Shown: positions 2,918 to 60,100 of the stretch, piece after piece | How the letters are laid out: each line of letters starts with the position of its first letter | How positions within the stretch are numbered: position 1 is the stretch's first letter | Origin: a bacterium | Lineage (GTDB): Bacteria; CAYTYR01; UBA6262 | Assembly (NCBI GenBank): GCA_028712365.1 | Contig: JAQTQE010000004.1 | Coordinates: 13,806 to 77,805 of the forward strand | Length of the DNA: 64,000 nucleotides | Direction: 5' to 3' | Notes under the pieces: model-generated | The model's input: the letters and a program-made list of their open reading frames with translations, nothing else | What the model was told of the DNA's origin: nothing | Databases searched by the model: none | Translations under genes and position numbers: made by a program

Positions 2918-2934
2918 AATATGGAGCGTTTTGC

Positions 2935-4431: not shown

Positions 4432-4441
4432 GAGAATATAC

Positions 4442-16443: not shown

Positions 16444-17604
16444 GTGTCTTCATTGAAGTTTCGGGAAACATTTGCTCAATCTGCTAATATTAAGGTTATT
16501 GGTGTCGGCGGCGGCGGCGGGAACGCGGTCAACCGTATGGTCATGGCCAATATCAAAGGCGTTGATTTTATCGCTGCCAATACCGATGCGCAAGCTTTAA
16601 AATATTCACTGGCGCCGCAACGGCTGCAGCTGGGAGAAAGAGCCACCCGGGGATTGGGAGTGGGCGGTGACCCGAGTATCGGCAAGAAAGCGGCTGAAGA
16701 ATCCAAAGCCTTGATCAAAGAAACTTTACGCGGGGCGGATATGGTATTTGTAACTGCCGGTTTTGGCGGCGGGACAGGTACCGGCGGGGCGCCGGTGGTG
16801 GCGGATATAGCCAAAAGTATTGGCGCCTTAACCGTTGGGGTGGTCACTAAACCATTTATGTTCGAAGGCAAGGTCAGGGCCAAACAGGCGGAAGAAGGGC
16901 TTAACGAACTCAGGAGCAAAGTTGATACCTTGCTGGTGATCCCAAACCAGAAATTATTTTCTGTCATTGATAAAAACACATCCTTGCTGGATACATTTAA
17001 AAAAGTTGATGAAGTATTACAGCGCGCGGTACAGAGTATCAGCGATATTATCACGCAGCACGGGGTAGTAAATGTGGATTTTGCCGATGTTCGTACCATT
17101 ATGCAGAGTTCAGGCAACGCCCTGATGGGCGCCGGTATGGCCAACGGGCAGAACCGGGCCCGTATCGCCGCGGAAAAGGCAGTCACCTCACCGCTACTGG
17201 AAGATGTCAGTATTAACGGCGCCAATAAAGTATTGGTTAATATTACCGGCGGGTTGAACCTGACCATGTACGAAACTGAACAGATCATGACGGTAATGCA
17301 TAATTATATTTCTTCTGACGCCAATGTGATCTTCGGCGCCGTGTTTGATGATAAATTGCAGGAAGAGTTGAAAGTCACGGTTATTGCTACCGGATTTTCG
17401 CCGCATAAAGAATCCGCCCGTCACCATTATACGCAAGGATTTAGTCAGGAAAAGCAGCGGCCTTTACCTTTGCCATTAGAAGAAGAGGAGGACCTTTCAG
17501 TGCCAGATCCCCGGGATAAAGGATTTAACAAGGGAGATATCAATGTCCCTGCTTTCATACGTAAACAAAAGGGCCTAAGGGAGGAATCTGAAAGTGAAGC
17601 TTGA
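16444..17604 (+). CDS. ftsZ: cell division GTPase FtsZ
   Basis: 386 aa. Tubulin signature GGGTGTG. GTG start with AAGGAG RBS. Confidence 0.95.
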   Translation: MSSLKFRETFAQSANIKVIGVGGGGGNAVNRMVMANIKGVDFIAANTDAQALKYSLAPQRLQLGERATRGLGVGGDPSIGKKAAEESKALIKETLRGADMVFVTAGFGGGTGTGGAPVVADIAKSIGALTVGVVTKPFMFEGKVRAKQAEEGLNELRSKVDTLLVIPNQKLFSVIDKNTSLLDTFKKVDEVLQRAVQSISDIITQHGVVNVDFADVRTIMQSSGNALMGAGMANGQNRARIAAEKAVTSPLLEDVSINGANKVLVNITGGLNLTMYETEQIMTVMHNYISSDANVIFGAVFDDKLQEELKVTVIATGFSPHKESARHHYTQGFSQEKQRPLPLPLEEEEDLSVPDPRDKGFNKGDINVPAFIRKQKGLREESESEA

Positions 17605-18697
17605 TAATCTAGATGACCTGCTCAGACATATGGTGGAGCGCAAAGCCAGTGACCTGCATTTGCGGGTAGGCTTGCATCCAATTTTGCGGATCAACGAAGA
17701 ATTAGTGCACACTGAATATGATCCGATGAGTAAAGAGGATATTGAAAGATTGGCCTTGGGGATCATGAATGAAGAACAAAAGCAAATGTTCAAGCATGAT
17801 CATGAACTGGATATGGCCTATAGCGTCAGCGGCTTGGCCAGGTTCAGGCTCAATGTGTTTTTTCAACGCGGTACGGTCAGCATGGCGCTCAGAATGGTAC
17901 CGATCCAGATCCTCGGTTATGAGGAATTGAATTTGCCTCCTATTATCGCCACTCTCTCAGAAAAACCGAGAGGTTTAGTGCTGGTCACAGGCACTACCGG
18001 CAGCGGTAAATCAACTACCCTGGCGGCGATGGTGGACCATATCAATACCACCCGGAAAGCGCATATCATTACGATCGAAGATCCGATCGAGTTCCTGCAT
18101 AAGGATAAATTAAGTATCTTGAGCCAAAGGGAAGTGGGACTTGATACTCGTAATTTTGTCACGGCTTTACGTCATGTAATGAGACAGGATCCAAATGTGG
18201 TCTTGATCGGTGAAATGCGTGATCTGGAAACTATGTCTTCCGCCTTAACCGCGGCCCAGCTTGGTCATTTGGTCCTGAGCACTTTGCACACTATTGACGC
18301 GGTACAAACTATTTCACGTATCATTGACCTCTTCCCGCCTTACCAACAAACCCAGGTCCGTTTGCAGATGGCCAATACTTTACAGGGAGTTATCTCCCAG
18401 CGCTTATTGCCCAGGATCGACCAGCCTGGCCTGGTACCGGCAGTGGAAATATTGATCGCCACTCCTTATGTTAAGAAATTAATAGAGGAAAACAATCTCG
18501 GTGATTTGCGCAAAGCTATCCAGGAAGGCGGGTACTACGGTATGCAGTCGTTTAACCAGGCCTTGGTAGCCTTGTATAAAGGAGGCAAAGTATCTCTGGA
18601 AGAAGCCTTATCCAGTGCTTCCAATCCTGAAGAGCTGATGCTGAACATCAGAGGTATATATTCTGGCAGCGATATGAGCCTGGGCAAGGAAAAATGA
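17594..18697 (+). CDS. pilT: type IV pilus retraction ATPase PilT-family (twitching motility protein)
   Basis: 367 aa. Walker A GTTGSGKSTT. PilT/PilU-type hexameric secretion ATPase core. GTG start overlapping the ftsZ stop by 11 nt. Confidence 0.85.
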   Translation: MKLDNLDDLLRHMVERKASDLHLRVGLHPILRINEELVHTEYDPMSKEDIERLALGIMNEEQKQMFKHDHELDMAYSVSGLARFRLNVFFQRGTVSMALRMVPIQILGYEELNLPPIIATLSEKPRGLVLVTGTTGSGKSTTLAAMVDHINTTRKAHIITIEDPIEFLHKDKLSILSQREVGLDTRNFVTALRHVMRQDPNVVLIGEMRDLETMSSALTAAQLGHLVLSTLHTIDAVQTISRIIDLFPPYQQTQVRLQMANTLQGVISQRLLPRIDQPGLVPAVEILIATPYVKKLIEENNLGDLRKAIQEGGYYGMQSFNQALVALYKGGKVSLEEALSSASNPEELMLNIRGIYSGSDMSLGKEK

Positions 18698-21111: not shown

Positions 21112-22086
21112 ATGAAAAAAATAATCAGGATATCAGCTTTATTGATCTGCGCATTGTTTTTATTGATGCCTGGCATATGCCGGACAGAGGAATTAAATAG
21201 TGATTGGCAAAGCCAGTCAATGCCTCTGTATACTACCAGGATCTTATCTTTACATTCCGGGTTTTTACAAGGATATACCAAATATCGTATTAATTTTAGC
21301 GGTGGAGCCAGTGAACTGGAATTCCCTCTGGATGTGCCGGTTTGGGGAGTTAAAGGTATATTGGGCTATAAAAACGTGTCCAGTGACCTGAATGAGACTG
21401 CCAGGCTGGTTTTTACTTATCTTACCAACACCAGTCAGGCTGCAGGAAAAATGAAGGATTCAGACTGGATCGATAGTGATGGCCATGATGGGGTGGATAT
21501 TTATTCGGAATCTGATACTGAATTGAAGGCCGAGATCCTGGCTTTTGATTATCTCTATAACCTATATCCGAACCAGCTGGTCAGTTTTGGCCCGCTGGCC
21601 GGTTATCAATTATATAAATTCAAATATCGCGTTTATAATACGGTGCAAGTTGGTTATGGCCCGTATAGCTCTTCTGCCAGCGCTTCTGTCAGCACTAAAA
21701 CCCTGGACTATTACGTCAGATATGAGGCTATTTACCTGGGTGTGGGCTTGATCAGCGGGAATATCCAGGATCTTACTTTCAATGCCGGATTCGGTTATTC
21801 CCCCTGGGCTAAAGCCAGCGACCGGGATGACCATATCCAGAGAAAAAAGCTGAGCGAAGGGGATGCCCATGGTTCTGCCTATATCTTTAAGGGTGACGCG
21901 GAATGGCGTTTTGCCGGACAATGGTCTTTGCAATTCGCCAGCCAGTATCAAAAGTTCAATACAGATGGTACGCAGCACCAGTCTTTTTATGATGATCCGG
22001 CTCTGGCCAGCGTCGTCTTTGATGTTGACGACAAAATATCTGCGGAGAATTATTTTATAACTGCCGGGATAGCTTATTATTTTTAA
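21112..22086 (+). CDS. putative outer-membrane beta-barrel protein (signal peptide, C-terminal Phe)
   Basis: 324 aa. N-terminal signal peptide. Alternating amphipathic strands. C-terminal ...GIAYYF aromatic terminus typical of OMPs. Confidence 0.55.
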   Translation: MKKIIRISALLICALFLLMPGICRTEELNSDWQSQSMPLYTTRILSLHSGFLQGYTKYRINFSGGASELEFPLDVPVWGVKGILGYKNVSSDLNETARLVFTYLTNTSQAAGKMKDSDWIDSDGHDGVDIYSESDTELKAEILAFDYLYNLYPNQLVSFGPLAGYQLYKFKYRVYNTVQVGYGPYSSSASASVSTKTLDYYVRYEAIYLGVGLISGNIQDLTFNAGFGYSPWAKASDRDDHIQRKKLSEGDAHGSAYIFKGDAEWRFAGQWSLQFASQYQKFNTDGTQHQSFYDDPALASVVFDVDDKISAENYFITAGIAYYF

Positions 22087-28645: not shown

Positions 28646-29389
28646 ATGGATATTAATGTGTATCAAAAACGTTTTTATCGTGACCAGTTCAAAAAGAAAG
28701 AACTGGAATATTTTGAATTGGTGATCAAGGAAAGCGATCTTTTTATCGGTGTAAGTAAAGCCACGGTTGAAATAAGGGAATTAGCCAGGGAGAGATTATT
28801 CCGGTTAAGGCAAGAATTGGAAGACTATATCGCTGAAAATCCAGTATTTGAAATTACCTTTAAACCGATCGAAATAAGAACGGGTGCTCCGGAAGTGGTG
28901 CGGCGAATGGCCCAGGCCGCCCGGCAAGCCGAAGTGGGACCGATGGCCAGTGTTGCCGGATGCCTGGCGGAAATGGTGGGAGAATCGTTGCGCCGGTTAT
29001 CAACTGAAGTGATCATTGAGAATGGGGGAGATCTTTACCTCGCTTCGACCAAACCCAGGATCATCGGTGTATTTGCCGGCGCCTCCAAATTCAGCGGAAG
29101 ATTATCAATGGAGATCACGCCGGAAGAAATGCCGGCAGGTATTTGTACTTCCAGCGGCACTATCGGCCATTCTGTGAGCTTAGGAAAGGCTGATACCTGT
29201 CTGGTCAAAAGCCGGTCCGCGGCCCTGGCCGATGCCTATGCTTCCACTATTGGGAATATGATCAAGGCCAAAGCTGACCTTCCGGCTGCTTTGGAGAGGG
29301 CAAAATCCTTGCCCGGCCTTGAAGGGCTGCTGATCATTATTGAAAATGAAATGGGACTATGGGGTAATATTAAGCTGGTAAGAACCTAA
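28646..29389 (+). CDS. conserved hypothetical protein (possibly UPF0280/ApbE-like fold)
   Basis: 247 aa. GPMASVAG and ENGGDLY segments reminiscent of ApbE/UPF0280. Assignment is tentative. Confidence 0.45.
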   Translation: MDINVYQKRFYRDQFKKKELEYFELVIKESDLFIGVSKATVEIRELARERLFRLRQELEDYIAENPVFEITFKPIEIRTGAPEVVRRMAQAARQAEVGPMASVAGCLAEMVGESLRRLSTEVIIENGGDLYLASTKPRIIGVFAGASKFSGRLSMEITPEEMPAGICTSSGTIGHSVSLGKADTCLVKSRSAALADAYASTIGNMIKAKADLPAALERAKSLPGLEGLLIIIENEMGLWGNIKLVRT

Positions 29390-30417: not shown

Positions 30418-31596
30418 ATGCTTAAGGGCAAGGAAATAGTCGTCGGGATCACCGGCGGCATTGCCGCGTATAAAGCTGCTTATATTGTCAGCCGGTTAAA
30501 AAAAGAACAAGCCCGGGTCACTGTCGTTATGACCAAAATGGCCCAGGAGTTTGTCACTCCGCTGACTTTCCAGTCTTTAACTGCCAATCAGGTTATAACT
30601 GAACTGGTCATGACCCCAAAGCAATGGGAGATCGAACATATCGCGCTGGCTAAAAAAGCCGACTTGGTGCTCATAGCTCCGGCCACTGCTAATTTTATTG
30701 ATAAATGCGCCGCTGGTATTGCCGATGATTTCTTGAGCACGTTGGTGTTAGCGACTAAAGCGCCGATCATGATCTGCCCGGCGATGAACAAAAACATGTA
30801 TGAAAACCAGTTGGTACAGGAAAATATCCGGAAACTGGCAAAAAGAAAAATGATCATTATTGATCCGGAGACCGGCCGTTTAGCCTGCGGAGACGAAGGA
30901 GCCGGGCGATTAGCCGGTGAAGAGAAGATCTTAGCCGCTATTCGTTCTATTCTTATTCCTCATGCGGATTTCCAGGATAAAACAGTACTGATCACTGCCG
31001 GACCTACGCAAGAGCCACTGGACGCCATCCGTTTCATTTCCAACCGGTCTAGCGGCAAAATGGGCTATGCCTTGGCCCGTGAAGCCGCTATTCGCGGGGC
31101 TGACGTGATCCTGGTCACCGGGCCGACCAGCCTGATACCTCCCAAAGAAGCTACCGTCATCCATGTCCGGACAGCCTTGGAAATGTATGAAAAGGTATTG
31201 TCCCATTATCCGGCCGCGGATATAGTCATTGCCGCCAGCGCGGTAGGGGATTTCCGGCCGCGTAATTTAGTGCCGGGAAAAATGAAGAAAAAAAGCAGAT
31301 TAAACCTGGCATTGATCGGTAACCCTGATATCCTGCAAGAACTGGGAAAACGTAAGAAGAAACAATTATTGGTCGGATTTGCCGCGGAAAGCAGTCAGCT
31401 CCTGGCTAATGCCAGGAAAAAAATGCGTGCCAAGAACCTGGACTTGATCATTGCCAATAAAATCGAGGATGGTTTCAACAAAGATACTAATAAAGTTCTT
31501 TTACTCTGGGGCCAAAAAGGCCGGAAAGCCCTGCCGGTATTACCGAAAGAAAAAGTAGCAAAAGAAATTCTTGACAAGATAAGAACCTTGTGTTAA
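30418..31596 (+). CDS. coaBC: bifunctional phosphopantothenoylcysteine decarboxylase/phosphopantothenate--cysteine ligase CoaBC
   Basis: 392 aa. N-terminal flavoprotein motif GITGGIAAYKA and a C-terminal CoaB domain. Confidence 0.9.
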   Translation: MLKGKEIVVGITGGIAAYKAAYIVSRLKKEQARVTVVMTKMAQEFVTPLTFQSLTANQVITELVMTPKQWEIEHIALAKKADLVLIAPATANFIDKCAAGIADDFLSTLVLATKAPIMICPAMNKNMYENQLVQENIRKLAKRKMIIIDPETGRLACGDEGAGRLAGEEKILAAIRSILIPHADFQDKTVLITAGPTQEPLDAIRFISNRSSGKMGYALAREAAIRGADVILVTGPTSLIPPKEATVIHVRTALEMYEKVLSHYPAADIVIAASAVGDFRPRNLVPGKMKKKSRLNLALIGNPDILQELGKRKKKQLLVGFAAESSQLLANARKKMRAKNLDLIIANKIEDGFNKDTNKVLLLWGQKGRKALPVLPKEKVAKEILDKIRTLC

Positions 31597-31637: not shown

Positions 31638-33815
31638 ATGAATAAGCTAAAATTTATAATACTTACTCTGGTAACAGCGGTAAGTATTTTATTTTTAGTA
31701 TCCCCGGCAGCCGCCGCCCCGAACGCTCCTACCGGATTTACCGCGGTTAATTTTGGCGGGCCGATCAGGCTGGCTTGGACTGCTAGTACCGGAGGGGTAG
31801 GAACAGTCACCTACACTGTTTACCGCGTTGAAGCCGATTCTACTACCATTCCCACAAATCCTCCTACAGGCGCTGGTACTTACGGCGCCTACGCCCAAAC
31901 CGTTACTTTCGGGATCACCAGTACCAGCTATGTCGATACATCAGTGAGTGACGGTACTACTTATTATTACTTTGTCACTGGAAATGACGGTACCGGGGAA
32001 AGCAGTCCCGCTACTACGGTCAGTTCCGCCACTAGTGATTATCCCGATGCTGATGCTGGCTACTATCTGACTCTTTCCGCGACAGAAACAACGATAGACT
32101 ATGAGACCAGTACCTTAGCCAACCCTTCCACCGGGACAATTATTACCTACAATATTAGTGATACAGACCAGGCTGGACACAGGTTTGTCGCGGCTAAGAT
32201 CAATTATGACATAATAGATAATTTTACCGATACTACCATCTATAAAGAAATTCAGGAAATATCCGGAGGTAGCACCGGCATTAATACCGGCCAGATCACC
32301 TGGGATGGCCGCTGGTTCAACACTACCCAGTATACCAAGCATAATGGCTCTTACACTGTTCAAGTTTGGGCTACTGATTTTGCCGGTACCGATCATCCAA
32401 AAGTGACGCTTACTATTACGGTGCACGCGGTGCATGTTAATGATGTGATCCAAACCTTTACCGATTTCGGTACTACTACTATCGCGCATAGCCTGCCGAT
32501 GCATTTTTCCTACCAATTGACCCAGGATGCCTGGACTACCATCACTATATATAATACGAATGGGACCGTGACCACCTCTGATGATACTCTGGTTAAGCGG
32601 TTTACTTATTCCGCGCCGCGCAATAGTGAAGGGCAGGATCGTAATTTCCGTGAATACCAGACCTGGGATGGTACTGATGAAAACATTAAATTAGTGCCAA
32701 CCGGGATTTATCGGTTCGCTATTGATGCTTATTTTGATCATACCGGCGCTGCCGACCGGGACACTGCTGAGGGCCGGGGCTGGACTTTTGCCCTGGATAA
32801 AAGGATCGTGGATATCACCACCACTGGTATTAGTGCCAGCAATGCGCTGGCCAGCATTAAATATACCTTGAGCGAAACTGCCAATGTCAAGATCAAGATC
32901 TGCAAATCCAGCACGACCTTTTCGACTGATAGTACTACCGGTGAAGCGATTCCCAGCCCAGCGGCCAATTTAGTAAAAACTTTTACCTTTTACCAACAAA
33001 GTTCTGGAGAACAGGAAATTACCTGGGACGGCAATGATGAAGGCGGCGTGGCCATGGGAAAAGGCGTATATTTTGTGGTTATAACTGCTACCGACGCGGA
33101 AGGTAATAGGTTCTTTAATACTTCTGGCACTGATAACCTTTTCCGCACCTCTGTTTCCATTGATAAAACCGCTATCCAGATAGCTACTGATTCTACGGCG
33201 CCGACAGTGTCTTCGGTTACCCCGGCTAATGGCGCCATCCTGACCAGTTCATTCACGGAAGTAAGCGCTGTACTGGCGGATAATACCGGAGGATCTGGCG
33301 TGGACCTGGCCAACTCTACTATCACCATGACTGATCCTGGCGGGAGCATTGTTACCGGCACCCAATCCAATAATGGCAGCGATACCATTACGCTGACCGT
33401 TGCCGCGCAAACCATAAACGGTACTTACACTTTACGGATCACACCCAGGGACTTGGTCGGTAATGTAGCGTCGCAAGCAACCTATACTTTCAGTTTGAAT
33501 ACCAGTGGCGAAGAAGGAGATTTTAAGGAATCTGTGTTCATCTATCCGAATCCTGTTAAAGGAAGAAGTGCCACTTTTGCATATTCCCTGGCTGGCGCGG
33601 CTACCGTGACTATTGATGTGTATACTATATTGGGTGAAAAGATCTGGTCAAAAGTGATTTATGATAACAGCTCAGGTGATAAAAGGGTGAGTTGGAGAAT
33701 CATTAATAACGATGGCGAAGTCCTGGCCGATGACTTATACCTGTATAAGATCACAGCTGAATATTCGAACGGCAATACCAGGACTGCCACCAAGAAACTG
33801 ATAATTTCAAAATAG
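31638..33815 (+). CDS. secreted multi-Ig-like-domain protein with FlgD-Ig-like repeats and a T9SS-type C-terminal sorting domain
   Basis: 725 aa. Signal peptide. At least three WDG(R/T/N)D motifs of FlgD-Ig-like domains. C-terminal about 80 aa begins IYPNPVKG and ends KKLIISK, like Por_Secre_tail. Confidence 0.6.
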   Translation: MNKLKFIILTLVTAVSILFLVSPAAAAPNAPTGFTAVNFGGPIRLAWTASTGGVGTVTYTVYRVEADSTTIPTNPPTGAGTYGAYAQTVTFGITSTSYVDTSVSDGTTYYYFVTGNDGTGESSPATTVSSATSDYPDADAGYYLTLSATETTIDYETSTLANPSTGTIITYNISDTDQAGHRFVAAKINYDIIDNFTDTTIYKEIQEISGGSTGINTGQITWDGRWFNTTQYTKHNGSYTVQVWATDFAGTDHPKVTLTITVHAVHVNDVIQTFTDFGTTTIAHSLPMHFSYQLTQDAWTTITIYNTNGTVTTSDDTLVKRFTYSAPRNSEGQDRNFREYQTWDGTDENIKLVPTGIYRFAIDAYFDHTGAADRDTAEGRGWTFALDKRIVDITTTGISASNALASIKYTLSETANVKIKICKSSTTFSTDSTTGEAIPSPAANLVKTFTFYQQSSGEQEITWDGNDEGGVAMGKGVYFVVITATDAEGNRFFNTSGTDNLFRTSVSIDKTAIQIATDSTAPTVSSVTPANGAILTSSFTEVSAVLADNTGGSGVDLANSTITMTDPGGSIVTGTQSNNGSDTITLTVAAQTINGTYTLRITPRDLVGNVASQATYTFSLNTSGEEGDFKESVFIYPNPVKGRSATFAYSLAGAATVTIDVYTILGEKIWSKVIYDNSSGDKRVSWRIINNDGEVLADDLYLYKITAEYSNGNTRTATKKLIISK

Positions 33816-33819
33816 AGGT

Positions 33820-34767
33820 ATGAATTTGAGCAAGAAAGAAAAATTACTGCTTTTTATACTGCTATCTGCTATCTGCCATCTGCCATCTGTTTTGACAGCT
33901 GCTACCAGCCAGACCGGTACTACTACAGCCTCGTTCCTGAAAATAGAGACTGGGGCCAGGCCGGTGGGCATGGGCGGGGCATACGTCGCGGTTGTTGATG
34001 ATATCAATGCTGTTTATTGGAATCCAGCCGGATTAGTGCAGTTGCAATCCAGGGAATTTAGTTTTATTCATACTGCCTGGCTGGAAAAAATACATCATGA
34101 GACTGTATCCTTTGCGGCACCGGGGAACCAGAGATTCGCTTATGGTTTGAGCGTGGTTTTTTTCGGCACTACGGATATAGACCGGCGCACTGCCGCTGGC
34201 ATAAATGATGGCAAAGCCAAAGTAGCAGATTATTATGAAAGTGTTTCACTGGCCTGGAAACTGATGGATAACACCAGCATCGGCGCGACCCTGAAGAGCA
34301 TCCAGATGACCCTGGACAATGATAAAGGATCAGGCTATGCCCTGGACCTGGGAGCGCTGCAAAAATTACCGTTGAATATGAGTGTGGGCATTATGGTGCA
34401 GAATCTGGGGCCAAAAATGAAAGCAGTGGATACCAGTGAAAAATTGCCCACCAATGTCAAGACCGGATTGGCCTGGAGAGCCTTGGATAATAAACTTGTA
34501 TTAGCCGGGGATATTGACCTGCCCAATGACCGGGAAATGAAATTCCATGCCGGCGCTGAATACCAATTCAACAGGCTATTCGCTTTGCGCGCCGGATATG
34601 AAGATGTAGGTTCTCTGGGCAATTCCAGCGGAATGACTGCCGGTATCAGTATTAATGAAGATATGCTGGATGAGATATTGAACGTAAATATGCAGTTTGA
34701 CTATTCCTGGTTGTATTTTGGTGAACTTGGTTCAACGCATAGGATAGGGATCAGTGTAAAGTTTTAA
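33820..34767 (+). CDS. putative outer-membrane beta-barrel, PorV/FadL-like
   Basis: 315 aa. Signal peptide. N-terminal GARPVGMGGAY...NPAGL motif as in FadL/PorV-family barrels. C-terminal aromatic residue (VKF). Confidence 0.5.
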   Translation: MNLSKKEKLLLFILLSAICHLPSVLTAATSQTGTTTASFLKIETGARPVGMGGAYVAVVDDINAVYWNPAGLVQLQSREFSFIHTAWLEKIHHETVSFAAPGNQRFAYGLSVVFFGTTDIDRRTAAGINDGKAKVADYYESVSLAWKLMDNTSIGATLKSIQMTLDNDKGSGYALDLGALQKLPLNMSVGIMVQNLGPKMKAVDTSEKLPTNVKTGLAWRALDNKLVLAGDIDLPNDREMKFHAGAEYQFNRLFALRAGYEDVGSLGNSSGMTAGISINEDMLDEILNVNMQFDYSWLYFGELGSTHRIGISVKF

Positions 34768-34836
34768 CCGTAAATTTAGCGAAGAAAAGAAGCGAAAAAC
34801 ACAAATAGATAAGAAGGTGAAGATATACGATTACAG

Positions 34837-34866
34837 AAGCAGGGTATTATGACCTGCTTTTTTTTA
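34837..34866 (+). terminator. intrinsic terminator after the PorV-like gene
   Basis: AAGCAGG/CCTGCTT stem followed by T8. Confidence 0.65.
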
Positions 34867-34895
34867 ATATTCGAGAAATTCGCTAAGGACAAACT

Positions 34896-35660
34896 ATGTC
34901 AAACAATGATCTACAGCAGGTGATCAGGGATTTTAAGGCTTATTTGGAACAGGAGCAAAGAAAAGGGTTGAAAGCTGTTCCTAGAACGGTCAACCGGCCT
35001 AAAATAATAGCTAAATTTAAAGCTAAAGCTGCTACCGTTGGTCTTGGCAAAAGCGCGGCTCTTGACCAACTCCATCAGGAATACGCCGGTTGCCAGAATT
35101 GCCCTTTGGGACGGACCAGGAATAAATTTGTCTTTGGCGAGGGCAGTGCAGATGCCCGCTTAATGTTTATTGGCGAAGGACCTGGTTTTGATGAAGACCA
35201 GACTGGCCGGCCTTTTATCGGCAAGGCCGGGCAATTGCTGACTAAGGCGATAGAAACAACAATAGATCTCCAACGGGAAGAGGTCTACATAGGAAATATT
35301 GTAAAATGCCATCCTATGAAAAACCCGGATCAGCCAACGCTGCGCGGCAATGACCGGCCGCCGGCAGCTGAGGAAATGAATGCCTGTTTACCGATAATTA
35401 CCCGGCAAATAGAGATAATTAAACCGGAGATAATTTGTTTATTAGGCCGGACAGCGGCCCAGGCGATTCTCAGGTCAAATGCCGGGATACACGAATTGCG
35501 CGATAAATTCCATATTTTAAACTTTAGCGGGCATGAGGTTAAATGTATTGCCACGGTCCATCCTGCCAGCTGCCTGTATGATCCCGCCAATAAGAAGTAT
35601 GTCTGGGAAGACTTCAAGAAGATCAGAGCTCTCCTGAAAAAGACATCTACACAGATTTAA
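34896..35660 (+). CDS. udg: uracil-DNA glycosylase family 4 (Fe-S cluster UDG) with N-terminal extension
   Basis: Motifs GEGPG, CxxC and GRPFIGKAG of family-4 UDG. About 60 aa of N-terminal extension. Confidence 0.8.
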   Translation: MSNNDLQQVIRDFKAYLEQEQRKGLKAVPRTVNRPKIIAKFKAKAATVGLGKSAALDQLHQEYAGCQNCPLGRTRNKFVFGEGSADARLMFIGEGPGFDEDQTGRPFIGKAGQLLTKAIETTIDLQREEVYIGNIVKCHPMKNPDQPTLRGNDRPPAAEEMNACLPIITRQIEIIKPEIICLLGRTAAQAILRSNAGIHELRDKFHILNFSGHEVKCIATVHPASCLYDPANKKYVWEDFKKIRALLKKTSTQI

Positions 35661-35677: not shown

Positions 35678-37630
35678 ATGAAAGGTACTATGAATAATTT
35701 TGCTAAAGTCATTATCCCCGGAATCGCCCTTGACCGGTTATTTGACTATGCCATTCCCCCGGGATTAAAAGAAGACATCCGGGTCGGACATTTGGTTAAT
35801 GTCAATTTTGGCCACCAGGATATCCAAGCGATAGTGTCTGAACTATTGCCAAAAAGCAAAATCCCCAAAGCCAAGGATATTATCAGTATCGTTTCACCGC
35901 AGCCATTTTTAAGTGAGACTATGCTGGAACTGACTCACTGGATCGCTGATCATTATTTTTGTTCATGGGGCGAGGCGATCGAAGCGTGCTTAATAAAACC
36001 GGTCAAACGACCGGTTAAGGTTGAGAAAATAAAAGAGCAAAAAAATCTCGATTTGCCGGGTTTATTGACGGGTGAACAAAACAGGATACTGGAACAGTTG
36101 AGAACTTTTCAGCAGGATCTAAACAATAAACCGGTCCTGCTCTGGGGCGGGCTGACGAGCGAAAGGATCACTATCTACCTGGAACTGGTAGATCCCTTAA
36201 TTAAAAGCCAGCGCCAGGTCCTGATCATAGTTCCACAGATAGGGATGATAGACCTATTACAGCATCATTTTTCCGCGCGCTATCCCGGGAAAGTAATTTC
36301 TTTGCATAGCGGTCTTTCCACCGGTGAAAAGCACAAGGCCTGGGAAGAAATAAGGACCGGCAAAGTCTCAATAATCCTGGGGACCAGGATGGCGGTATTC
36401 TATAGTTTTCAAAAATTGGGACTCATGATCATGGAGGATGAGCAGGACACAGCCTATAAGTCAGACCAAAAACCAATGTATCATACCCGAGATGTAGTCG
36501 CGAAAAAAGCTGAACTGGAGAGGATTCCCCTGATTTTTGCGACTGCCGCTCCCTCTGCCGAAAGCTATTACAAAGCCATCAAGGATGATTATAAATTACT
36601 AAAATTTGGCAATCTTTTTGACCAGGAAATCGTAAAAATACAGGTACAGGAATTGCCTAAGCGCATCCAAAAAGACACGCTGGTTTATTTCAGCCAATCC
36701 TTTATTCAGGCAATTGAATCGCGGCTGCAAAAGCAGGAGCGTGCCGCTTTTTTTGTCAATATGCGCGGCTATTCCACGTATGTCTATTGCCGGATGTGCA
36801 AGTTTGTAATGAAATGTCCTGATTGTGATGTGGCTTTAACCGTGAGTGCCGAGAAGAATACACTGTATTGCCGTTATTGCCAATATACCCAGAAACAGAC
36901 CACTGAATGCCCATCCTGCCATACTCAGCACTTGAGACCGATAGGGATCGGCATGGAGACAGTGACCGCTGCGCTGCAGGATATTTTCCCGCAGGCCAAG
37001 ATCAAGCGCATTGACGCGCAAACCTATGAACAAAGCAATAATCTAAGAGATATTGATATCATCATAGGAACACAAGTCTTAAATAAATATGATTATTTAC
37101 CTAATACGACTTTATTAGGAGTATTGTTAATAGACCTTTTATTGAACCTGCCGGATTTCCGGGCTGCTGAACATACTTTCCAAACCTTGATCGGATTGAT
37201 CCAGCGTTTGGATACTGCCAAAGGAAATACAGAAGTGATCATCCAGGCTGAGAATGTGGATCATTATTTGCTGGCATCAATAAAGAACCAGGATTGGGCT
37301 AGTTTTTACCGCCTGGAGCTGGAATTCCGTAAACAGTTGAAATATCCGCCGTTCGGGAGCCTGGCGCAAGTAGAGGTCCGGGGAGCGGATAAGGATAAAG
37401 TAGAAAAAGCGGCGCTGGCTCTGGCCGGGGAATTCAAGAAATCAACGATAAAAGTGTATGGCCCGGCGCCGTCATTCAGGGCTAAATTGCGGGGGCAGTA
37501 CCGACAGCATATTATGCTGAAATCGTCCAGCCATAACGCCTTGATCAAAGTGCTGCAGAAAGTGAAGCCAAACAAGCGCACCACTGCTATCACCATTAGC
37601 ACTGACGTCGATCCAGTTGAAGTGCTTTAA
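35678..37630 (+). CDS. priA: primosomal protein N' (PriA) homolog with degenerate helicase motifs I/II
   Basis: 650 aa. N-terminal 3' DNA-binding region (RLFDYAIP). Zn-binding CxxC-CxxC block. Walker A reads GGLTSERI and the DEEH box reads EDEQ. Confidence 0.8.
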   Translation: MKGTMNNFAKVIIPGIALDRLFDYAIPPGLKEDIRVGHLVNVNFGHQDIQAIVSELLPKSKIPKAKDIISIVSPQPFLSETMLELTHWIADHYFCSWGEAIEACLIKPVKRPVKVEKIKEQKNLDLPGLLTGEQNRILEQLRTFQQDLNNKPVLLWGGLTSERITIYLELVDPLIKSQRQVLIIVPQIGMIDLLQHHFSARYPGKVISLHSGLSTGEKHKAWEEIRTGKVSIILGTRMAVFYSFQKLGLMIMEDEQDTAYKSDQKPMYHTRDVVAKKAELERIPLIFATAAPSAESYYKAIKDDYKLLKFGNLFDQEIVKIQVQELPKRIQKDTLVYFSQSFIQAIESRLQKQERAAFFVNMRGYSTYVYCRMCKFVMKCPDCDVALTVSAEKNTLYCRYCQYTQKQTTECPSCHTQHLRPIGIGMETVTAALQDIFPQAKIKRIDAQTYEQSNNLRDIDIIIGTQVLNKYDYLPNTTLLGVLLIDLLLNLPDFRAAEHTFQTLIGLIQRLDTAKGNTEVIIQAENVDHYLLASIKNQDWASFYRLELEFRKQLKYPPFGSLAQVEVRGADKDKVEKAALALAGEFKKSTIKVYGPAPSFRAKLRGQYRQHIMLKSSSHNALIKVLQKVKPNKRTTAITISTDVDPVEVL

Positions 37631-54589: not shown

Positions 54590-55168
54590 GTGAAGAAGGT
54601 ATTGTTTTTTGCATTGTTAATGCTCATGGCAAGTGTTCTGTGGGCTGAAGAGTCAACAGCCCAAGGCACAAAAAAGATTGGTATAGGATATTTTGACAAT
54701 GGCTTGGATCTTGTTTACTGGAAAAACGAGCATAAAGGGATTCAGGCTAATGTCAAGCTATCTGCAAGCAGATTGGGCGACGTATATGATTACGGTAATA
54801 CACAGAACAGTTGGGATTATCGCATCAGATTTGCATTTTTAAGAAAAGTAAAGGAATACGATTTTCTTAAGATTTCGATAGCTTATGGCATAAGCTGGAG
54901 TGATGTAAAAAGCGTACAGAATGCAGATTATTCAATGTACACAAGAACGGCAGTATTACAAGTCGGGCCTATATTTGAAATATTCATGCCTTTTTGTAAA
55001 AACTTATGTTTAGCCAGTGACTTGAAGCTTAATCTTGGCATTACCGTTAGAACTCACGACATACCTGCGAACATGACAACGACTCCAAGAAGGTCCAATA
55101 CCGAAAGTATATATTTTAGCGGCACAGGATTTACCTTGGATACGGTTTCAATAAGGTATTATTTCTGA
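54590..55168 (+). CDS. small outer-membrane beta-barrel protein
   Basis: 192 aa. GTG start. Signal peptide. Ends ...IRYYF. Confidence 0.5.
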   Translation: MKKVLFFALLMLMASVLWAEESTAQGTKKIGIGYFDNGLDLVYWKNEHKGIQANVKLSASRLGDVYDYGNTQNSWDYRIRFAFLRKVKEYDFLKISIAYGISWSDVKSVQNADYSMYTRTAVLQVGPIFEIFMPFCKNLCLASDLKLNLGITVRTHDIPANMTTTPRRSNTESIYFSGTGFTLDTVSIRYYF

Positions 55169-55181
55169 GAAAGAGGATAAG

Positions 55182-56090
55182 ATGATAAAGTTTAAACGAA
55201 ACAAATTTGTATTTATGTTTTTGCTTACGGCCTCGATTCTGCTTGCTTATAATGTTTACGCCGAAAATAACAATCCTGACTATTCCACCAAAGAATCGAA
55301 ATACAAGAAGCATAAGCACGTTAAGAAAAGAGTGAAAGAAATAGAGCGATCGGGAGAGAATTCTGTTCCGAGCCTCATAAGATTATTAAATGATGATGAC
55401 CCAGATACTAGAATATCTGCCATGTCAAGTCTGGGGCGGATAGGAAGTAAGAAAGCAATAGCTCCAATTATAAAATTAATGGAAAATGATAAGGATGATA
55501 ATATAAGAATAAGCGCCGCAACTGTCTTGGGTTATTTAAGTGGAACAGAAGCAATTCCAGCTCTCAAGAAAGCCTTATCAGATAGTAATAAAATGATCCA
55601 AATAAGAGCAGCCGGCTCTCTTGGTATGCTTAACGACGGCTCTGGTTACGCAATTATATTTGGTTATAGCGAGGATGCGGATATCAATGTAAAAGCCAAT
55701 GCTTTGCAGGCTTTTGGCCTTATTGCGGATGAGCGAGCTATTTCTATACTGGGAAAGTACAAGGATGATAATAATTATCGTCTTAGGAAAGCCGCATTAA
55801 TATCTATCAGGCAAATTGGGATTGCCAGAGAGTACAGGATTGCCTTACAGAAAAATGGTAAAAAGGTGGCAGATTATAAGAAGCTTTCCTTGCTTGAATA
55901 TTCTTTATCCGATACCAATCCCATTATAAGAAAGTGGGCGTTGAGAACTCTGATTTTGAGAATAGATGAAAAGGAAGTGGTGGAACTACTTGTAAAAATT
56001 GCCAATAATGACAAGAATCCTTCCCAAGACAACGTTATGGAGGTTCTCAAGAATTATAACATTGCCTTTGATAAGAGAAAGAAGAAATGA
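55182..56090 (+). CDS. secreted HEAT/PBS-lyase-repeat protein (paralog-like of 45854..46741)
   Basis: 302 aa. Signal peptide. Repeated DxxxRxxAxxxLGxxG units. Confidence 0.55.
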   Translation: MIKFKRNKFVFMFLLTASILLAYNVYAENNNPDYSTKESKYKKHKHVKKRVKEIERSGENSVPSLIRLLNDDDPDTRISAMSSLGRIGSKKAIAPIIKLMENDKDDNIRISAATVLGYLSGTEAIPALKKALSDSNKMIQIRAAGSLGMLNDGSGYAIIFGYSEDADINVKANALQAFGLIADERAISILGKYKDDNNYRLRKAALISIRQIGIAREYRIALQKNGKKVADYKKLSLLEYSLSDTNPIIRKWALRTLILRIDEKEVVELLVKIANNDKNPSQDNVMEVLKNYNIAFDKRKKK

Positions 56091-56518
56091 GGAAGAATAA
56101 TTTCCTTTACCGTGTTTTGTTTTTCTTATTAATGTTCTTAGATAGTAATTGCATCGCTGGGGAGAGTCAAATGCAGGTTAGATTGTGGAAAGAATTATCA
56201 ACAGTGAATTTATCTGAATTAAATAGTTATATTAATAGTTTGTCCCTGCTTGCAGATGGGGCGACAGTTCCTTCCATTGATACAATAAAAACTGGAGAGG
56301 CCTCAGGTTGTAGATATGCCCGGATTTCTAAAATGAAACAAAAAGAGAACAATGATACGGCTTTAGTAACAATAACAAACGGCGACCTATTAAGAGATTT
56401 GCTTGGAAACGATATTGTATGTGATTATAGCGGGATAACAATATCCATTTCAGCTAATTTGAGTTTTGAAAGGCAGGAAGATGAAAAAGGCATTGCTTGT
56501 TACATTCTTAATATTTAA
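56087..56518 (+). CDS. secreted hypothetical protein
   Basis: 143 aa. Signal peptide. No motif. Confidence 0.35.
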   Translation: MRKNNFLYRVLFFLLMFLDSNCIAGESQMQVRLWKELSTVNLSELNSYINSLSLLADGATVPSIDTIKTGEASGCRYARISKMKQKENNDTALVTITNGDLLRDLLGNDIVCDYSGITISISANLSFERQEDEKGIACYILNI

Positions 56519-57170
56519 TTTAATAACAATAGCTAAAGTAGGCTCTTGCGAATATACATGGCACCTATTCACAAGTACGCCACCTATTAAGGGAAAAGTT
56601 ATTGATTCGGTTACTGGGGAACCAATCAAAGACGCTATATTGGTGGTGAGATGGTTTAAAGCTAAACCTGCTATTGTGGATACTGCAGACAGCGTTATTC
56701 TTGAAAAAGGCTTTATAACCGATAGTAAGGGAGAATTTACCATCCCTAATAAAATTAATATGCATTTTACTTCCTGGTTTGCCGGGATGGGGATAGGAGT
56801 CATGCATCCTTCATACAGTATTCTGGTTACCGGCCTATCAGACGAGCGAAACAGCCTTTTTTATGCGGATTCAGAATTTAAGAAAGGGATTATCATTGCT
56901 ACTCTCAAGCTGACAAAATTAACTGACAAATATATAAAGCCAGAAGATAATATTAATTTACTTGAAGAGTTCAGCGAAATATTTCCTAAATGCTATTCTT
57001 TGTATTTCAAATGGGCCAAGAAACTGAAGGTTAATACTAATAAAGAAGCTGTATTTAGAAACTGGGATCAAATAATTAACAGATTCCCGGGTGCCCCTAA
57101 ACATCTTGACTTAACTATTGATATAGAAAACGAAAAATCCTTAATTAATAATATAGGGAATGGAGAGTAA
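56481..57170 (+). CDS. secreted hypothetical protein with carboxypeptidase-regulatory-like N-domain
   Basis: GKVIDSVTGEPIKDAILVV resembles the CarboxypepD_reg fold. Start taken at MKKALLV. Confidence 0.4.
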   Translation: MKKALLVTFLIFNLITIAKVGSCEYTWHLFTSTPPIKGKVIDSVTGEPIKDAILVVRWFKAKPAIVDTADSVILEKGFITDSKGEFTIPNKINMHFTSWFAGMGIGVMHPSYSILVTGLSDERNSLFYADSEFKKGIIIATLKLTKLTDKYIKPEDNINLLEEFSEIFPKCYSLYFKWAKKLKVNTNKEAVFRNWDQIINRFPGAPKHLDLTIDIENEKSLINNIGNGE

Positions 57171-57172
57171 TA

Positions 57173-60100
57173 ATGAGGAAAATCATTTTATTTTTAACTT
57201 TATTTATGATTTTGAATTTGTTCTCATTAACTAATCTTTGGTCACATAGTGCAACTGTCGTTCATCCCAAATTATCTGATAAAGCCGTCAGTAATTTAGA
57301 TGCCTTCTTTAATGAGGTTAAGACATATAAAAATCAGATTAAACAAGGGAGCATTGATGAAGATACTCCTATTTGGCAGGTGCTAAATCATTTTTATAAT
57401 CCTATAAATGGTGCCGGTTTTCCAGGAGGAATGCCTACAAACCAGTATGTAAAAGATATATGGGATGCATCAATTTACGAATATTCACAAGGGAATAAAA
57501 CGGAAGCCTATTACCTGTTAGGAAAAGTTGCTCATTTGGTTCAAGATATGTCTGTCCCGGCACATGTTCATATAGACTCGCATTTATTTGGAGATGATTA
57601 TGAAATTTGGTGCAAGGGGCCTGGTGAAACTGGTAGTAATATAATCGGATGTGTTAATACAGCAGAAGGCTATATTACTGTATCTGGCTATGAGGATGCA
57701 ATTGAGCAAATGGCAAGGCTGGGTTATGATTCTTCGAGATTTGAGGCGACATTATATGCTGATTCCAGATCAGTTGATGAAAATTGTGAATTGGCAAAAA
57801 TGTTCCCGGGCTCTATCAGATACATAGTTCCGCTTGACGCTAATACTTTAGATAATGGATTCTGGGAAATTGATAACATTGGGAATTATGATGGAGTGGA
57901 AACCGATAATGGCAGCAATGACTGGTGGGAGATAGATGAATATATTGGCTGGTTCTATATAGAGAATATTGGAGGGGATAGTTATCCAGTAGCTCCCGAA
58001 CAAATAAGAAGTGATATCACCAACCCAAGTACAAATTCGTCAATGGTAAGCAATACCAAATCATTGTACCAACTTTTTGCGGAACAATTAATCCCTTTAC
58101 CCATAAAATATTCCACAGGCTTACTGAAATATTTCTACGATAATCGTCCGCAAATCGTTTATCCTTCAAAGGTAACTAATTTAACGGCAACATCTACTGT
58201 TGATAGCGTTTCTCTTATTTGGGAAGCAGCAACAGAAGGAGCTGCGGTTAAAAACTATGCAATTTATAGAGATAACAGTTATGTAGGTCAAACAAATTCA
58301 ACCACACTGACATTTACTGATATGGGCAGGAGTGCAAACACCATATATGAGTACGAAGTTAGTGCTATTGCGGAAAACGGATTAGAAGGTGAAAAGACAG
58401 GTATAATGGTTGTTACTCAATCTCAGCCCGGCAGCAATGAACCAGTCCCAGTGATAATGAACCAAATTTCCAATATTACTGAGACTACAGCTGTTCTAAG
58501 CTGGTCACAAAGCAATGACGGTAATTTCAAAGAATACAGGATTTATCGTTCCCAGGGAAGTGGTGTTAGTGAAAATTCCACTCTAGTCACAACTATTACA
58601 TCAAGAGCCATTACAGCTTTTACTGACATTGGTTTATCAGAAGCAACAACATATTATTACCGTGTTTACGTATTCAACACTCAAGATTTATCTGCAAAGA
58701 GCAATGAGGTGTTTGCACGAAGTATCGGCAATACAATTCCTGATTTCGCAGTTTCTCCAGAAGACATAAGTATGCAATCAACAAATCCTAATCCTGGAGA
58801 TATTGTTACAATAAATGCTATAATCCACAATATTGGGCAAATACCTCCTGATGACGAAATTGTTGTAAGATTCTATGATGGAGACCCGGCAAATGGCGGA
58901 ATCCTAATTGGTGAAGATAAAAAAAGTTTCTGTTGGGTATTCGGGGGAGATGCCTCTGACACCTATGGAGTTGATTGCGGAATCATAGTTGATGATAATT
59001 TAGAAAAAAGATTATATTTAAGTGATACAAGTTTCCAATTATTCGGCCCAAATAACATTGACCTTGAAGGCAGTAATAGTGCAGGAGGCAAATATTACAC
59101 AGATAATTGTTTAACTGTTGATTTTAATAACGGGGCATGGCAAAATGTTAACATAACTCCTACCCCTCACATAGTCAAGGCATATGATAGTGGATTCATT
59201 CATGTAAGAGTATCCGTTTCGGGTGACTTTGATAGTGGTGGTCACTTTAAGGCTAATTTCCATATACGAGGTCGCAAGGCTAGAGATAATAATCAACCAA
59301 TAGAAGCCTCAGTTAACTGGAATACAAGTAACAGAACCGGTTCCCATGACATCTATGTAGTAGTGGATCCTGATAATATAATAACATCAGAAGTTAACAA
59401 GGGCAATAATATAAGCCATAAGCGTATAAACATTGGTCCCGATAAGCCTGATTTGAACATTACATCAAATGATATAAGCTTCACCAGGGAAACCCTGGAT
59501 GTTACAATTAAGGCAAAAATATCCAACACGAATAATATCGAAGCTAATAATGTGAAGGTGAATTTCTATGACGGGTTGCCTTCTAATAATATTCTTATAG
59601 GAAGCACGACTATACCTAAAATACCCATTCCTCTTCTATCAGGTTCAAAGTCAGGGGATGACTGGGCAACCATGGAAACCGGCATCTTCCAATTGGTAAT
59701 CACTTCAAGCACTGTAGATAATGGAGGCCTGGCACCTGGGACTTATACGGCGCTTAAAAAGAACTGGATATATTCTAATATTTCTTACGGAGATAATTTG
59801 CCTATAAATGTTAATCCGGAAGTGACTGCTAGCCATCACAACAATACTCTGGAAATTTATGAAAAAACTGCCACGGGTTTCAAGACACGAATCTGGACAT
59901 ACGCCGATATATATCAGCCCGGGGTGGCTTTCTCTTATAGGCCGTGGCTATATACCAAAGACCAAATTACTTTCGACTGGTCATTGCCAGAGTATAATAG
60001 TGTGGCGCAGGTTAGTTGGAATATTAACGGATTGTCAGGTAGCCACGACGTTTACGTGGTAGTGGATCCTGATGATAGCATTTCAGAAGTTCAAGAAGAT

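Follow-up and report, generated by a model that had tools for sequence, protein, structure and literature searches.

How does a secreted protein with a type IX secretion system (T9SS) sorting tail come to stand beside an outer-membrane barrel, in the middle of a housekeeping gene block? The question is raised by a 64,000-nucleotide (nt) stretch of contig JAQTQE010000004.1 (GenBank assembly GCA_028712365.1, positions 13,806 to 77,805 of the forward strand), referred to here at its full length as the window, whose lineage is Elusimicrobia-like and lies outside the described T9SS range. Two plus-strand open reading frames (ORFs) are concerned, one of 725 amino acids (aa) at 31638..33815 and one of 315 aa at 33820..34767, with 4 nt between them, called below the cargo and the barrel. 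The gene order in this part of the window is gmk, rpoZ, coaBC, cargo, barrel, family-4 uracil-DNA glycosylase (UDG), priA, a 95-aa ORF, def and fmt. The pair and the UDG gene behind it thus lie between coaBC and priA, all on the plus strand, where the initial annotation, prepared from the letters of the window, had located them. That annotation considered the two genes a cargo-plus-shuttle pair inserted into the block. The pair is probably a dedicated carrier and anchor barrel with its cognate sorting-domain protein, similar in logic to PorQ and PorZ, and not a shuttle of general use beside one of its ordinary cargos.

The first part of the answer lies at the C-terminal end of the cargo. The C-terminal sorting domain (CTD; aa 633-725, 33534..33812), which extends from IYPNP to KKLIISK, passes the cutoffs of both TIGR04183 (32.9 bits, cutoff 23, aa 635-723) and PF18962 Por_Secre_tail (32.2 bits, cutoff 27, aa 635-707), in agreement with the resemblance seen by the initial annotation. 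The domain is of a type A-like kind: CHU_C reaches 26.0 bits, below its cutoff of 27, and the type B model TIGR04131 has no match on the cargo. AlphaFold2 (AF2) predicts seven strands between aa 634 and 723, with a per-residue confidence (pLDDT) of 80-90. The CTD runs to the last residue of the protein, and a Sec signal peptide (aa 1-26) occupies the opposite end. The best sequence match of the cargo in the PDB is the C-terminal end of PorU (6za2, aa 999-1153, E 1e-5). A fold search with the full model returned generic strings of immunoglobulin (Ig) and fn3 domains only, together with the PorU C-terminal region as the best bacterial match. The identity of the cargo as PorU or PorZ itself was considered and rejected, since the CTD region alone matches those models and the scores stay below the equivalog cutoffs. 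Residues K719 and K720 are invariant in the sequence alignment of 11 orthologs. A single conserved CTD lysine, RemZ K1110, is the conserved PorV contact in the solved complex of the Flavobacterium johnsoniae system (PMC10994853).

The second part of the answer is the barrel, which is assigned to the PorV/PorQ family of FadL-fold outer-membrane β-barrels by sequence profile, PDB match, AF2 model and Foldseek. The family model NF033709 (PorV_fam) scores 181.2 bits (cutoff 90) and aligns aa 34-315 with profile positions 1-326. Among the Pfam models, PorV gives 33.5 bits (cutoff 27), UPF0164 47.1 bits and Toluene_X 38.1 bits (cutoff 29.7), the best stretch of the last covering aa 96-163 only. F. 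johnsoniae PorV (6h3i_F) is the sole PDB sequence match. The AF2 model, built with 57 homologs (pLDDT 90.6, pTM 0.85), has as its top Foldseek match PorV from the substrate-bound T9SS translocon (8gl6_F, E 1e-16, TM-score 0.74), followed by FadL, TodX and TbuX (E ~1e-11, TM ~0.62) and by the BamG chains 9hiv_F, 9n2d_B and 9hjm_F (TM 0.51-0.56). The initial annotation proposed a PorV/FadL-like barrel, and the hidden Markov model (HMM) comparison of 33820..34767 bears out the PorV family and not FadL itself, whose equivalog reaches 13.6 of the required 585 bits. The other equivalog models also stay below their cutoffs: PorV (NF033710) with 90.2 vs 250 bits, PorQ (NF033711) with 100.3 vs 220 bits and aa 19-218 alone aligned, PorV2 with 74 vs 325 bits and BamG (NF053685) with 15.4 vs 250 bits. 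The PorP/SprF models have no match on the barrel. A barrel 84% identical to this one is labelled a PorV/PorQ family protein by NCBI.

The barrel can be divided into three parts. A signal peptide (aa 1-27, 33820..33900), with a predicted helix at aa 5-25, is putatively cleaved after L-T-A, as the alignment also suggests. It is followed by the N-terminal hatch or plug segment (aa 32-78, 33913..34053), which includes GTTTASFLK and the NPAGL motif (aa 68-72, nt 34021-34035) and is the most conserved part of the barrel family. The initial annotation was right in pointing to this N-terminal motif: neither N68 nor P69 varies in 57 diverse homologs, and NPAGL aligns to the 'WNPAK' of F. johnsoniae PorV. 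The transmembrane β-barrel (aa 79-315, 34054..34764, delimited by DSSP on the AF2 model) ends in a C-terminal Phe (VKF), which we take to be the usual β-signal of outer-membrane proteins. The hairpin at aa 106-147 carries residues (D119, I120, R123, G127 and G131) that are invariant in the close subfamily and not in the wide family, which suggests a role in partner binding. The mature barrel has no cysteine, as its single Cys sits in the signal peptide. The family is large, with 51,465 clusters at 50% identity at E<=1e-3 and 11,006 at E<=1e-30. Many of its Elusimicrobia-type members are fused to OmpA, SH3, CsgG-like or TPR domains (P0037, P0046, P0059, P0064, P0065, P0077 and P0116), and barrel ORFs of 500-690 aa with extra domains occur in the loci L006, L008, L010, L012, L025, L047, L066 and L074. 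The barrel of the window has no such extension; the domains fused elsewhere would suit an anchoring role.

The relation between the two proteins becomes visible in the comparison with other lineages. A scan of one genome per species yielded 80 loci with barrels 28-38% identical to that of the window, distributed over Elusimicrobiota, Endomicrobiales, Firestonebacteria, FCPU426, Sumerlaeota and Poribacteria, as well as Rhodothermales, other Bacteroidota, Calditrichia, KSB1, Ignavibacteria, Zixibacteria and WOR-3. A CTD profile iterated from the cargo was run on all ORFs of the sampled loci, which reach 10 kb to each side of the barrels. A same-strand gene ending in a CTD stands immediately upstream of 60 of the 89 barrel genes and within 1.6 kb downstream of 13 more, against a background of 122 CTD genes in 928 (binomial p ~5e-32, uncorrected for phylogeny). 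It is this immediate upstream position in 60 of the 89 homologous barrels that supports the reading as dedicated partners. The neighbouring partners measure 82 to 3,332 aa in length, and their N-terminal parts are unrelated, including PQQ/BamB-like, NHL and delta-60 propellers and OmpL47-type domains; thus, the conserved thing is the relation between CTD and barrel. The claim of a cargo-plus-shuttle pair therefore stands as regards the pairing, and the shuttle gives way to a probable dedicated carrier and anchor, given the scores below the PorV and PorQ equivalog cutoffs and the many different partners.

The partner CTDs themselves are matched by TIGR04183 and, with their best scores, by the C-terminal portions of the PorZ and PorU models. 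Again, a PorU or PorZ identity of these partners was rejected, as the CTD regions alone match and the scores stay below the equivalog cutoffs. A lysine is present in the last 10 residues of 50 of the 56 barrel-adjacent partners, mostly within G-K/R-[FL]-A-[VI]-[IV]-[KR], and the KKLIISK of the window fits this shared motif. In the loci whose titles name no lineage of the Fibrobacteres-Chlorobi-Bacteroidetes (FCB) group, 42 CTD genes are paired with a barrel and 4 are orphans, compared with 41 paired and 35 orphan genes in the FCB loci. All four non-FCB orphans come from loci titled merely 'bacterium'; one of these loci, L027, has a Rhodothermales/Bacteroidetes gene block, and L072 has three neighbour families in common with a Calditrichaceae and a Rhodothermales locus. 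In related lineages, several members of the barrel family may share one 20-kb locus, each beside its own CTD gene (L008, L033, L053 and L070). The 64-kb window holds one CTD protein, the cargo. No description of the breadth of this pairing was found in the literature consulted.

Several recurrent arrangements were observed among these loci. Up to 22 Rhodothermales/Bacteroidetes loci (among them L023, L024, L026, L027, L029, L034, L035, L054, L056 and L071) contain a five-gene block of a CTD protein (~628 aa), a TonB-dependent receptor (~935 aa), a second CTD protein (~1139 aa) with no family match, the barrel and a third CTD protein (~546 aa). In the Ignavibacteria/KSB1 loci L048, L055, L060, L062, L063, L069 and L077, a ~361-aa NHL-repeat protein comes after the barrel and a ~783-aa CTD protein after that, which places the CTD partner downstream and not upstream. 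A third arrangement occurs in Endomicrobiales, Elusimicrobiales and one unclassified bacterium, where a giant protein of >2100 aa, cut by the locus edge, lies directly upstream of a PQQ-propeller CTD partner and barrel (L006:1-6495, L010:1-6576 and L015:1-6687); its sole match is a BamB-like propeller at the C-terminal end.

The age of the arrangement can be judged from closer relatives. Cargo orthologs comprise the identical P0121 and ten others down to 56% identity, from metagenome-assembled genomes labelled 'bacterium' or 'Elusimicrobia bacterium'. All four retrieved contexts, namely L001 (GCA_016218565.1), L082, L083 (GCA_043821115.1) and L084, have the order coaBC-cargo-barrel-UDG-priA. 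Identities between the window and L001, L084 and L083, in this order, are 73%, 63% and 56% for the cargo and 75%, 61% and 42% for the barrel, beside 81%, 74% and 49% for coaBC, 72%, 64% and 49% for UDG and 72%, 55% and 32% for priA. The cargo and barrel are as constrained as the housekeeping genes around them, an unusual finding for a surface protein. A recent or horizontal insertion was rejected on the basis of the ordinary composition, the order kept in the four relatives and the divergence matching that of housekeeping genes. The initial annotation thus correctly saw the pair within the block, and its wording that the pair is inserted and interrupts this block needs revision, as the arrangement is ancient and lineage-fixed and not a recent or mobile insertion. 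The curated-threshold scores together with the conserved synteny also mean that the CTD and PorV-family matches are not due to chance. In L083 (8749-9941), coaBC, fused in the window, is called as two genes, a Flavoprotein of 183 aa and a DFP of 194 aa, which may reflect a genuine split, a frameshift or a fault of the assembly.

The divergence is unevenly distributed along the cargo. In the most distant orthologs, the central part (aa 266-520) is 73-83% identical, compared with 44-45% for the CTD and 35-37% for the fn3-like N-terminal domain. The CTD (44-45%) and the barrel (~42%) diverge at a similar rate in these orthologs, and such parallel divergence, next to a core that stays at 73-83%, fits a co-evolving interface. 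A local HMM search found the complete 255-aa core confined to the 11 orthologs.

What would such a pair do? On the model drawn from these families, Sec would export the 725-aa cargo to the periplasm, as its signal peptide suggests. The 315-aa protein, a 14-strand-type FadL-fold outer-membrane barrel of the PorV/PorQ family according to HMM and predicted fold, would recognise the seven-strand β-sandwich CTD of its cognate cargo. The crossing of the outer membrane would by default be assigned to a translocon of the SprA type and a motor, with their genes in another part of the genome. The cargo would then be held non-covalently on the cell surface through its uncleaved CTD, as proposed by analogy and from the statistics of the gene pairs; the models for such anchoring are PorZ held by PorQ, PorU by PorV and the type B adhesins by PorP/SprF-like carriers. 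The binding of CTD and barrel, the retention of the CTD and the surface display of the cargo are what we infer from these analogies, and the barrel most likely both carries and anchors the cargo. The displayed protein would form a stalk of Ig-like domains, with the conserved central 255-aa FlgD-Ig double domain as its putative functional part. No catalytic domain is detectable in the cargo, so a structural or binding role on the surface is most likely.

The known systems offer a frame for this proposal. In the canonical T9SS, export relies on the SprA/Sov translocon and the PorKLMN energy chain, PorV docks at SprA's lateral opening, and the PorU sortase cuts off the CTD, after which the cargo is joined to A-LPS or released. 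In F. johnsoniae, it is inside the SprA pore that the CTD attaches to the carrier PorV, at its extracellular loops; SprA gives more than half of the CTD-binding surface and the energy of the motor extracts the carrier-substrate complex (PMC10994853). Type A substrates are taken over by the general carrier PorV, and type B substrates stay bound to their own dedicated carriers (PMC12635249), an example being sprB, which adjoins its carrier gene sprF (PMC9143113). The CTD is retained in PorU, which is docked on PorV, and in PorZ, which is docked on PorQ (PMC10947112), and a 2023 review put forward 'cognate PorV-like beta-barrels' as the protection of such CTDs against cleavage (PMC10202324).

The closest parallel is the attachment complex of Porphyromonas gingivalis, where a PorV/PorQ-family FadL-fold barrel holds its partner through an uncleaved CTD, as in PorQ-PorZ and PorV-PorU. 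The partner is there itself a CTD protein, and it is the CTD region of PorU that the cargo of the window matches best in sequence. Unlike those pairs, the barrel falls below the PorQ and PorV equivalog cutoffs, the cargo is an Ig-like string with a lineage-specific core and has neither a C25 peptidase domain nor β-propellers, the lineage is Elusimicrobia-like, and the other attachment-complex and translocon genes are unseen in the window and the sampled flanks. The type B adhesin systems SprB-SprF and PG1035-PorP share with the window the one cargo with one dedicated neighbouring barrel that serves as carrier and anchor (PMC9143113, PMC12635249). They differ in that the CTD here is type A-like (TIGR04183 passes, CHU_C reaches 26 of 27 bits) and the barrel belongs to the PorV/PorQ family and not to PorP/SprF; with no cysteine in its mature part, it also has no SprF-style twin-cysteine tail. 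F. johnsoniae PorV (6h3i, 8gl6) resembles the barrel as its best sequence and fold match, in the N-terminal WNPA hatch motif and in the type of CTD served, whereas the barrel of the window is ~50-90 residues shorter, stays below the equivalog cutoff and, by genomic pattern, has a one-to-one partner.

A more remote likeness connects the cargo to the Leptospira Lsa66-type and spirochaete FlgD-Ig/Big_13 surface proteins with OmpA domains, as the Lsa66 model aligns by its N-terminal part with cargo aa 336-523 (E 4e-8). Three of the distant homologs (P0134, P0135 and P0138) have an OmpA domain in addition to FlgD_ig and Big_13 repeats, and P0137 (Spirochaetaceae) has the repeats only. The OmpA domain presumably binds peptidoglycan, and proteins that carry it would be tethered in this way and not by a CTD and a barrel. 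They have the generic FlgD-Ig segment in common with the cargo, but not the 255-aa core.

The probable dedicated pairing has to be weighed against four other explanations, of which two concern the export route. That the barrel is a general PorV shuttle for many CTD cargos, and the upstream gene an ordinary cargo exported through SprA and freed of its CTD by the PorU sortase, is decidedly unlikely. The type A-like CTD would agree with it, as type A substrates of Bacteroidota use PorV (PMC12635249), and so would the position of PorV as the best PDB match in both sequence and fold; yet the PorV equivalog stays at 90 of 250 bits, one CTD protein is encoded in the 64-kb window, and PorU, SprA and PorKLMN are unseen in the window and the sampled flanks. 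In addition, the several barrels of a 20-kb locus in related lineages each have their own CTD gene, and orphan CTD genes are rare beside paired ones in the loci not titled FCB (4 vs 42), compared with the FCB loci (35 vs 41). This genomic pattern of one partner per barrel argues against a general carrier. The autonomous two-gene module, in which the barrel together with the β-barrel assembly machinery (BAM) would export the partner and hold it by the CTD without SprA or PorKLMN, in the manner of a two-partner display system, is conceivable though unlikely. A barrel of the 14-strand, hatched FadL type has no known capacity to pass a folded Ig string of 700 aa, and in the solved system SprA provides over half of the CTD-binding surface and the energy of the motor is needed for the extraction of the carrier (PMC10994853). 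In favour of this module are the abundance of pairs in lineages without a described T9SS (PMC4793230), the nearly constant pairing of CTD genes in non-FCB loci, the zero T9SS core genes in the window and in ~55 non-FCB flanks, and the conservation of the pair, which is that of a housekeeping function; against it, the core-gene absence refers to the window and flanks and not to whole genomes, and the 10-kb sampling around the barrels biases the orphan count. In its widest form, this proposal would make CTD and PorV/PorQ-family barrel pairs widespread autonomous modules of Elusimicrobiota, Firestonebacteria and other non-FCB lineages, the ancestral unit of the T9SS carriers of Bacteroidota and, in the window, a core envelope component, and in that form too it is to be considered only a slight possibility.

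The remaining two explanations give the barrel another function. As a FadL/TodX-type channel for hydrophobic compounds, with a secreted neighbour that is unrelated and merely co-transcribed, the barrel would leave the recurrent pairing with CTD genes unexplained. The scores of Toluene_X (38.1 bits, cutoff 29.7) and UPF0164 (47.1 bits) and the FadL fold with its NPA hatch motif speak for such a channel, but the Toluene_X match spans aa 96-163 only, the FadL equivalog reaches 13.6 vs 585 bits and PorV is clearly the better fold match, which makes the channel very improbable. Equally improbable is a role similar to BamG, a BAM accessory which in Bacteroidota holds the surface protein BamH over BamA. 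BamG chains are found among the fold matches, BamG binds a surface protein with its extracellular loops and a bamG2-bamH2 operon exists (PMC12578637), and such a role would explain the strong conservation of a pair located in a housekeeping cluster. Nevertheless, the NCBIfam BamG model gives 15 vs 250 bits, the TM-scores of 0.51-0.56 compare with 0.74 for PorV, and BamH is a lipoprotein, whereas the cargo has a signal peptidase I (SPase I) signal and a CTD.

The dedicated carrier and anchor thus remains the preferred explanation, and several points weigh against it. The T9SS translocon, motor and sortase genes are unseen in the window and the sampled flanks. Within the window, no T9SS core gene was detected among the scanned ORFs, as the initial annotation had noted, and the remaining ORFs have orthologs with housekeeping Pfam labels. 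SprA, PorK/L/M/N and the PorU sortase are also absent from the recurrent neighbours in the sampled flanks, where ~1,000 flanking genes were clustered, which is a weak negative; the recurrent genes matched TonB-dependent receptors, further CTD proteins, ABC ATPases and histidine kinases. No PorU-like C25 peptidase occurs in the window or sampled flanks, and no T9SS core gene in the ~55 non-FCB flanks. In the abstracts consulted, the T9SS is described as limited to Bacteroidota or the FCB group, the TXSScan survey detected it in 60 of 97 Bacteroidetes genomes and, among the other clades, in none (PMC4793230), and nothing relevant was found in the literature on a T9SS in Elusimicrobia. As the surveys place the system in Bacteroidetes/FCB alone (PMC4793230), the assumed export route may not exist here. 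Scoring below both equivalog cutoffs, the barrel is neither the characterised PorV nor the characterised PorQ. PorV (367 modelled residues in 8gl6_F, a 402-residue chain in 6h3i_F) exceeds it in length by ~50-90 residues, which may mean shorter loops in the barrel, and in PorV it is the loops that bind the CTD. The adjacency statistic is uncorrected for phylogeny and comes from loci chosen by their similarity to the barrel of the window, and everything past the family assignment is inference.

The cargo as a whole is a secreted, all-β protein rich in Ig domains, as the ORF, the Pfam/NCBIfam profiles and the AF2 model (11 orthologs, mean pLDDT 71) indicate. Its signal peptide (aa 1-26, 31638..31715), read from the sequence as MNKLKFIILTLVTAVSILFLVSPAAA followed by AP after the putative cleavage site, is of the SPase I type, without a lipobox Cys, and AF2 predicts a helix at aa 2-20. 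The fn3-like N-terminal domain (aa 27-128, 31716..32021) has weak PDB fn3-like sequence matches and is a confident β domain in the AF2 model. The second Ig-like domain (aa 129-265, 32022..32432) is predicted with pLDDT mostly 80-93 and has a weak InlK_D3 match, as well as a weak match to the CTD/FlgD-Ig model at aa 204-248. The lineage-specific conserved core (aa 266-520, 32433..33197) contains FlgD-Ig-like domains at aa 289-364 and 404-487, and the Pfam model FlgD_ig, with 53.2 bits over two stretches of the cargo, establishes the FlgD-Ig repeats named by the initial annotation. It is followed by a Big_13-like Ig domain (aa 521-622, 33198..33503; Pfam Big_13 24.4 bits, below cutoff; AF2 pLDDT 81-92), whose PDB sequence matches are to a biofilm-associated surface protein. 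The iterated CTD profile scores 71 bits on the terminal copy and 30 and 44 bits on the internal FlgD-Ig domains; since it also matches these internal domains, the CTD and the FlgD-Ig repeats are akin in fold, with the terminal copy alone amounting to a full sorting domain. The identical P0121 is annotated as 'FlgD immunoglobulin-like domain containing protein [bacterium]'.

The neighbours of the pair are recognised with high scores. The gene coaBC (30418..31596; TIGR00521, 474 bits) ends 41 nt before the start of the cargo gene. Downstream, the family-4 UDG gene (34896..35660; TIGR00758, 187 bits, and synteny) lies 128 nt past the barrel gene, and priA (35678..37630; TIGR00595, 412 bits) forms the downstream edge of the conserved block. 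In the UDG, the family models match only from about residue 56-66 on, leaving the N-terminal ~55-65 aa unmatched, and UDG homologs are also found 3-9 kb from a barrel in L007 and L058. All ~60 genes of the window are on the plus strand, and its rest is housekeeping in character, with the dcw cell-wall and division cluster, ftsA/ftsZ, ileS-lspA-lgt-rluD, gmk-rpoZ, def-fmt, trmD and rplS, as well as murE at 2917-4442. The GC content of the cargo and barrel genes is 0.46-0.50, compared with a window mean of 0.44, and their composition is ordinary. The Rfam scan of the whole 64 kb gave zero RNA families at the gathering threshold, and the promoter and terminator scan gave the same counts as in shuffled sequence.

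Some further genes of the window deserve mention in their own right. A 247-aa protein (28646..29389) between a coiled-coil ORF and gmk has no match in the Pfam scan; its ortholog in L084 carries PF27030 AbpE_bact, and L001, though otherwise syntenic, does not have the gene. A PilT/T2SSE-type secretion ATPase gene (17594..18697) lies directly 3′ of ftsZ, and an omptin-family outer-membrane protein gene (21112..22086) just 5′ of an IF-2B-family gene and ileS. Farther downstream, small ORFs and a HEAT-repeat protein (54590..57170) precede a 1627-aa protein (57173..62056), whose N-terminal domain is a Zn-dependent phospholipase C and which continues with fn3, CARDB, PKD and BNR domains. This protein has a FlgD-Ig-like 'WDGRDENG...Y' segment near its C-terminus, without a terminal CTD, and a TPR protein gene (62075..63376) comes after it.

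Both genes of the pair belong to known, already annotated families. Less ordinary are the combination of a type A-like CTD with a probably dedicated adjacent barrel, the occurrence in a lineage for which no T9SS is described, the conservation at the level of housekeeping genes and the breadth of the pairing. In the literature, type A cargos share one carrier, PorV, and in the window a barrel of the PorV/PorQ family stands next to a single protein with a type A-like CTD. For the window, the value of this analysis lies in the confident annotation of a conserved surface protein with an anchor barrel, in place of a mobile insertion. If such pairs need a T9SS, the taxonomic range of the system and the logic of dedicated carriers would be broader than described. 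If they work without a T9SS, they would represent a simple, previously unrecognised route for placing proteins on the outer membrane.

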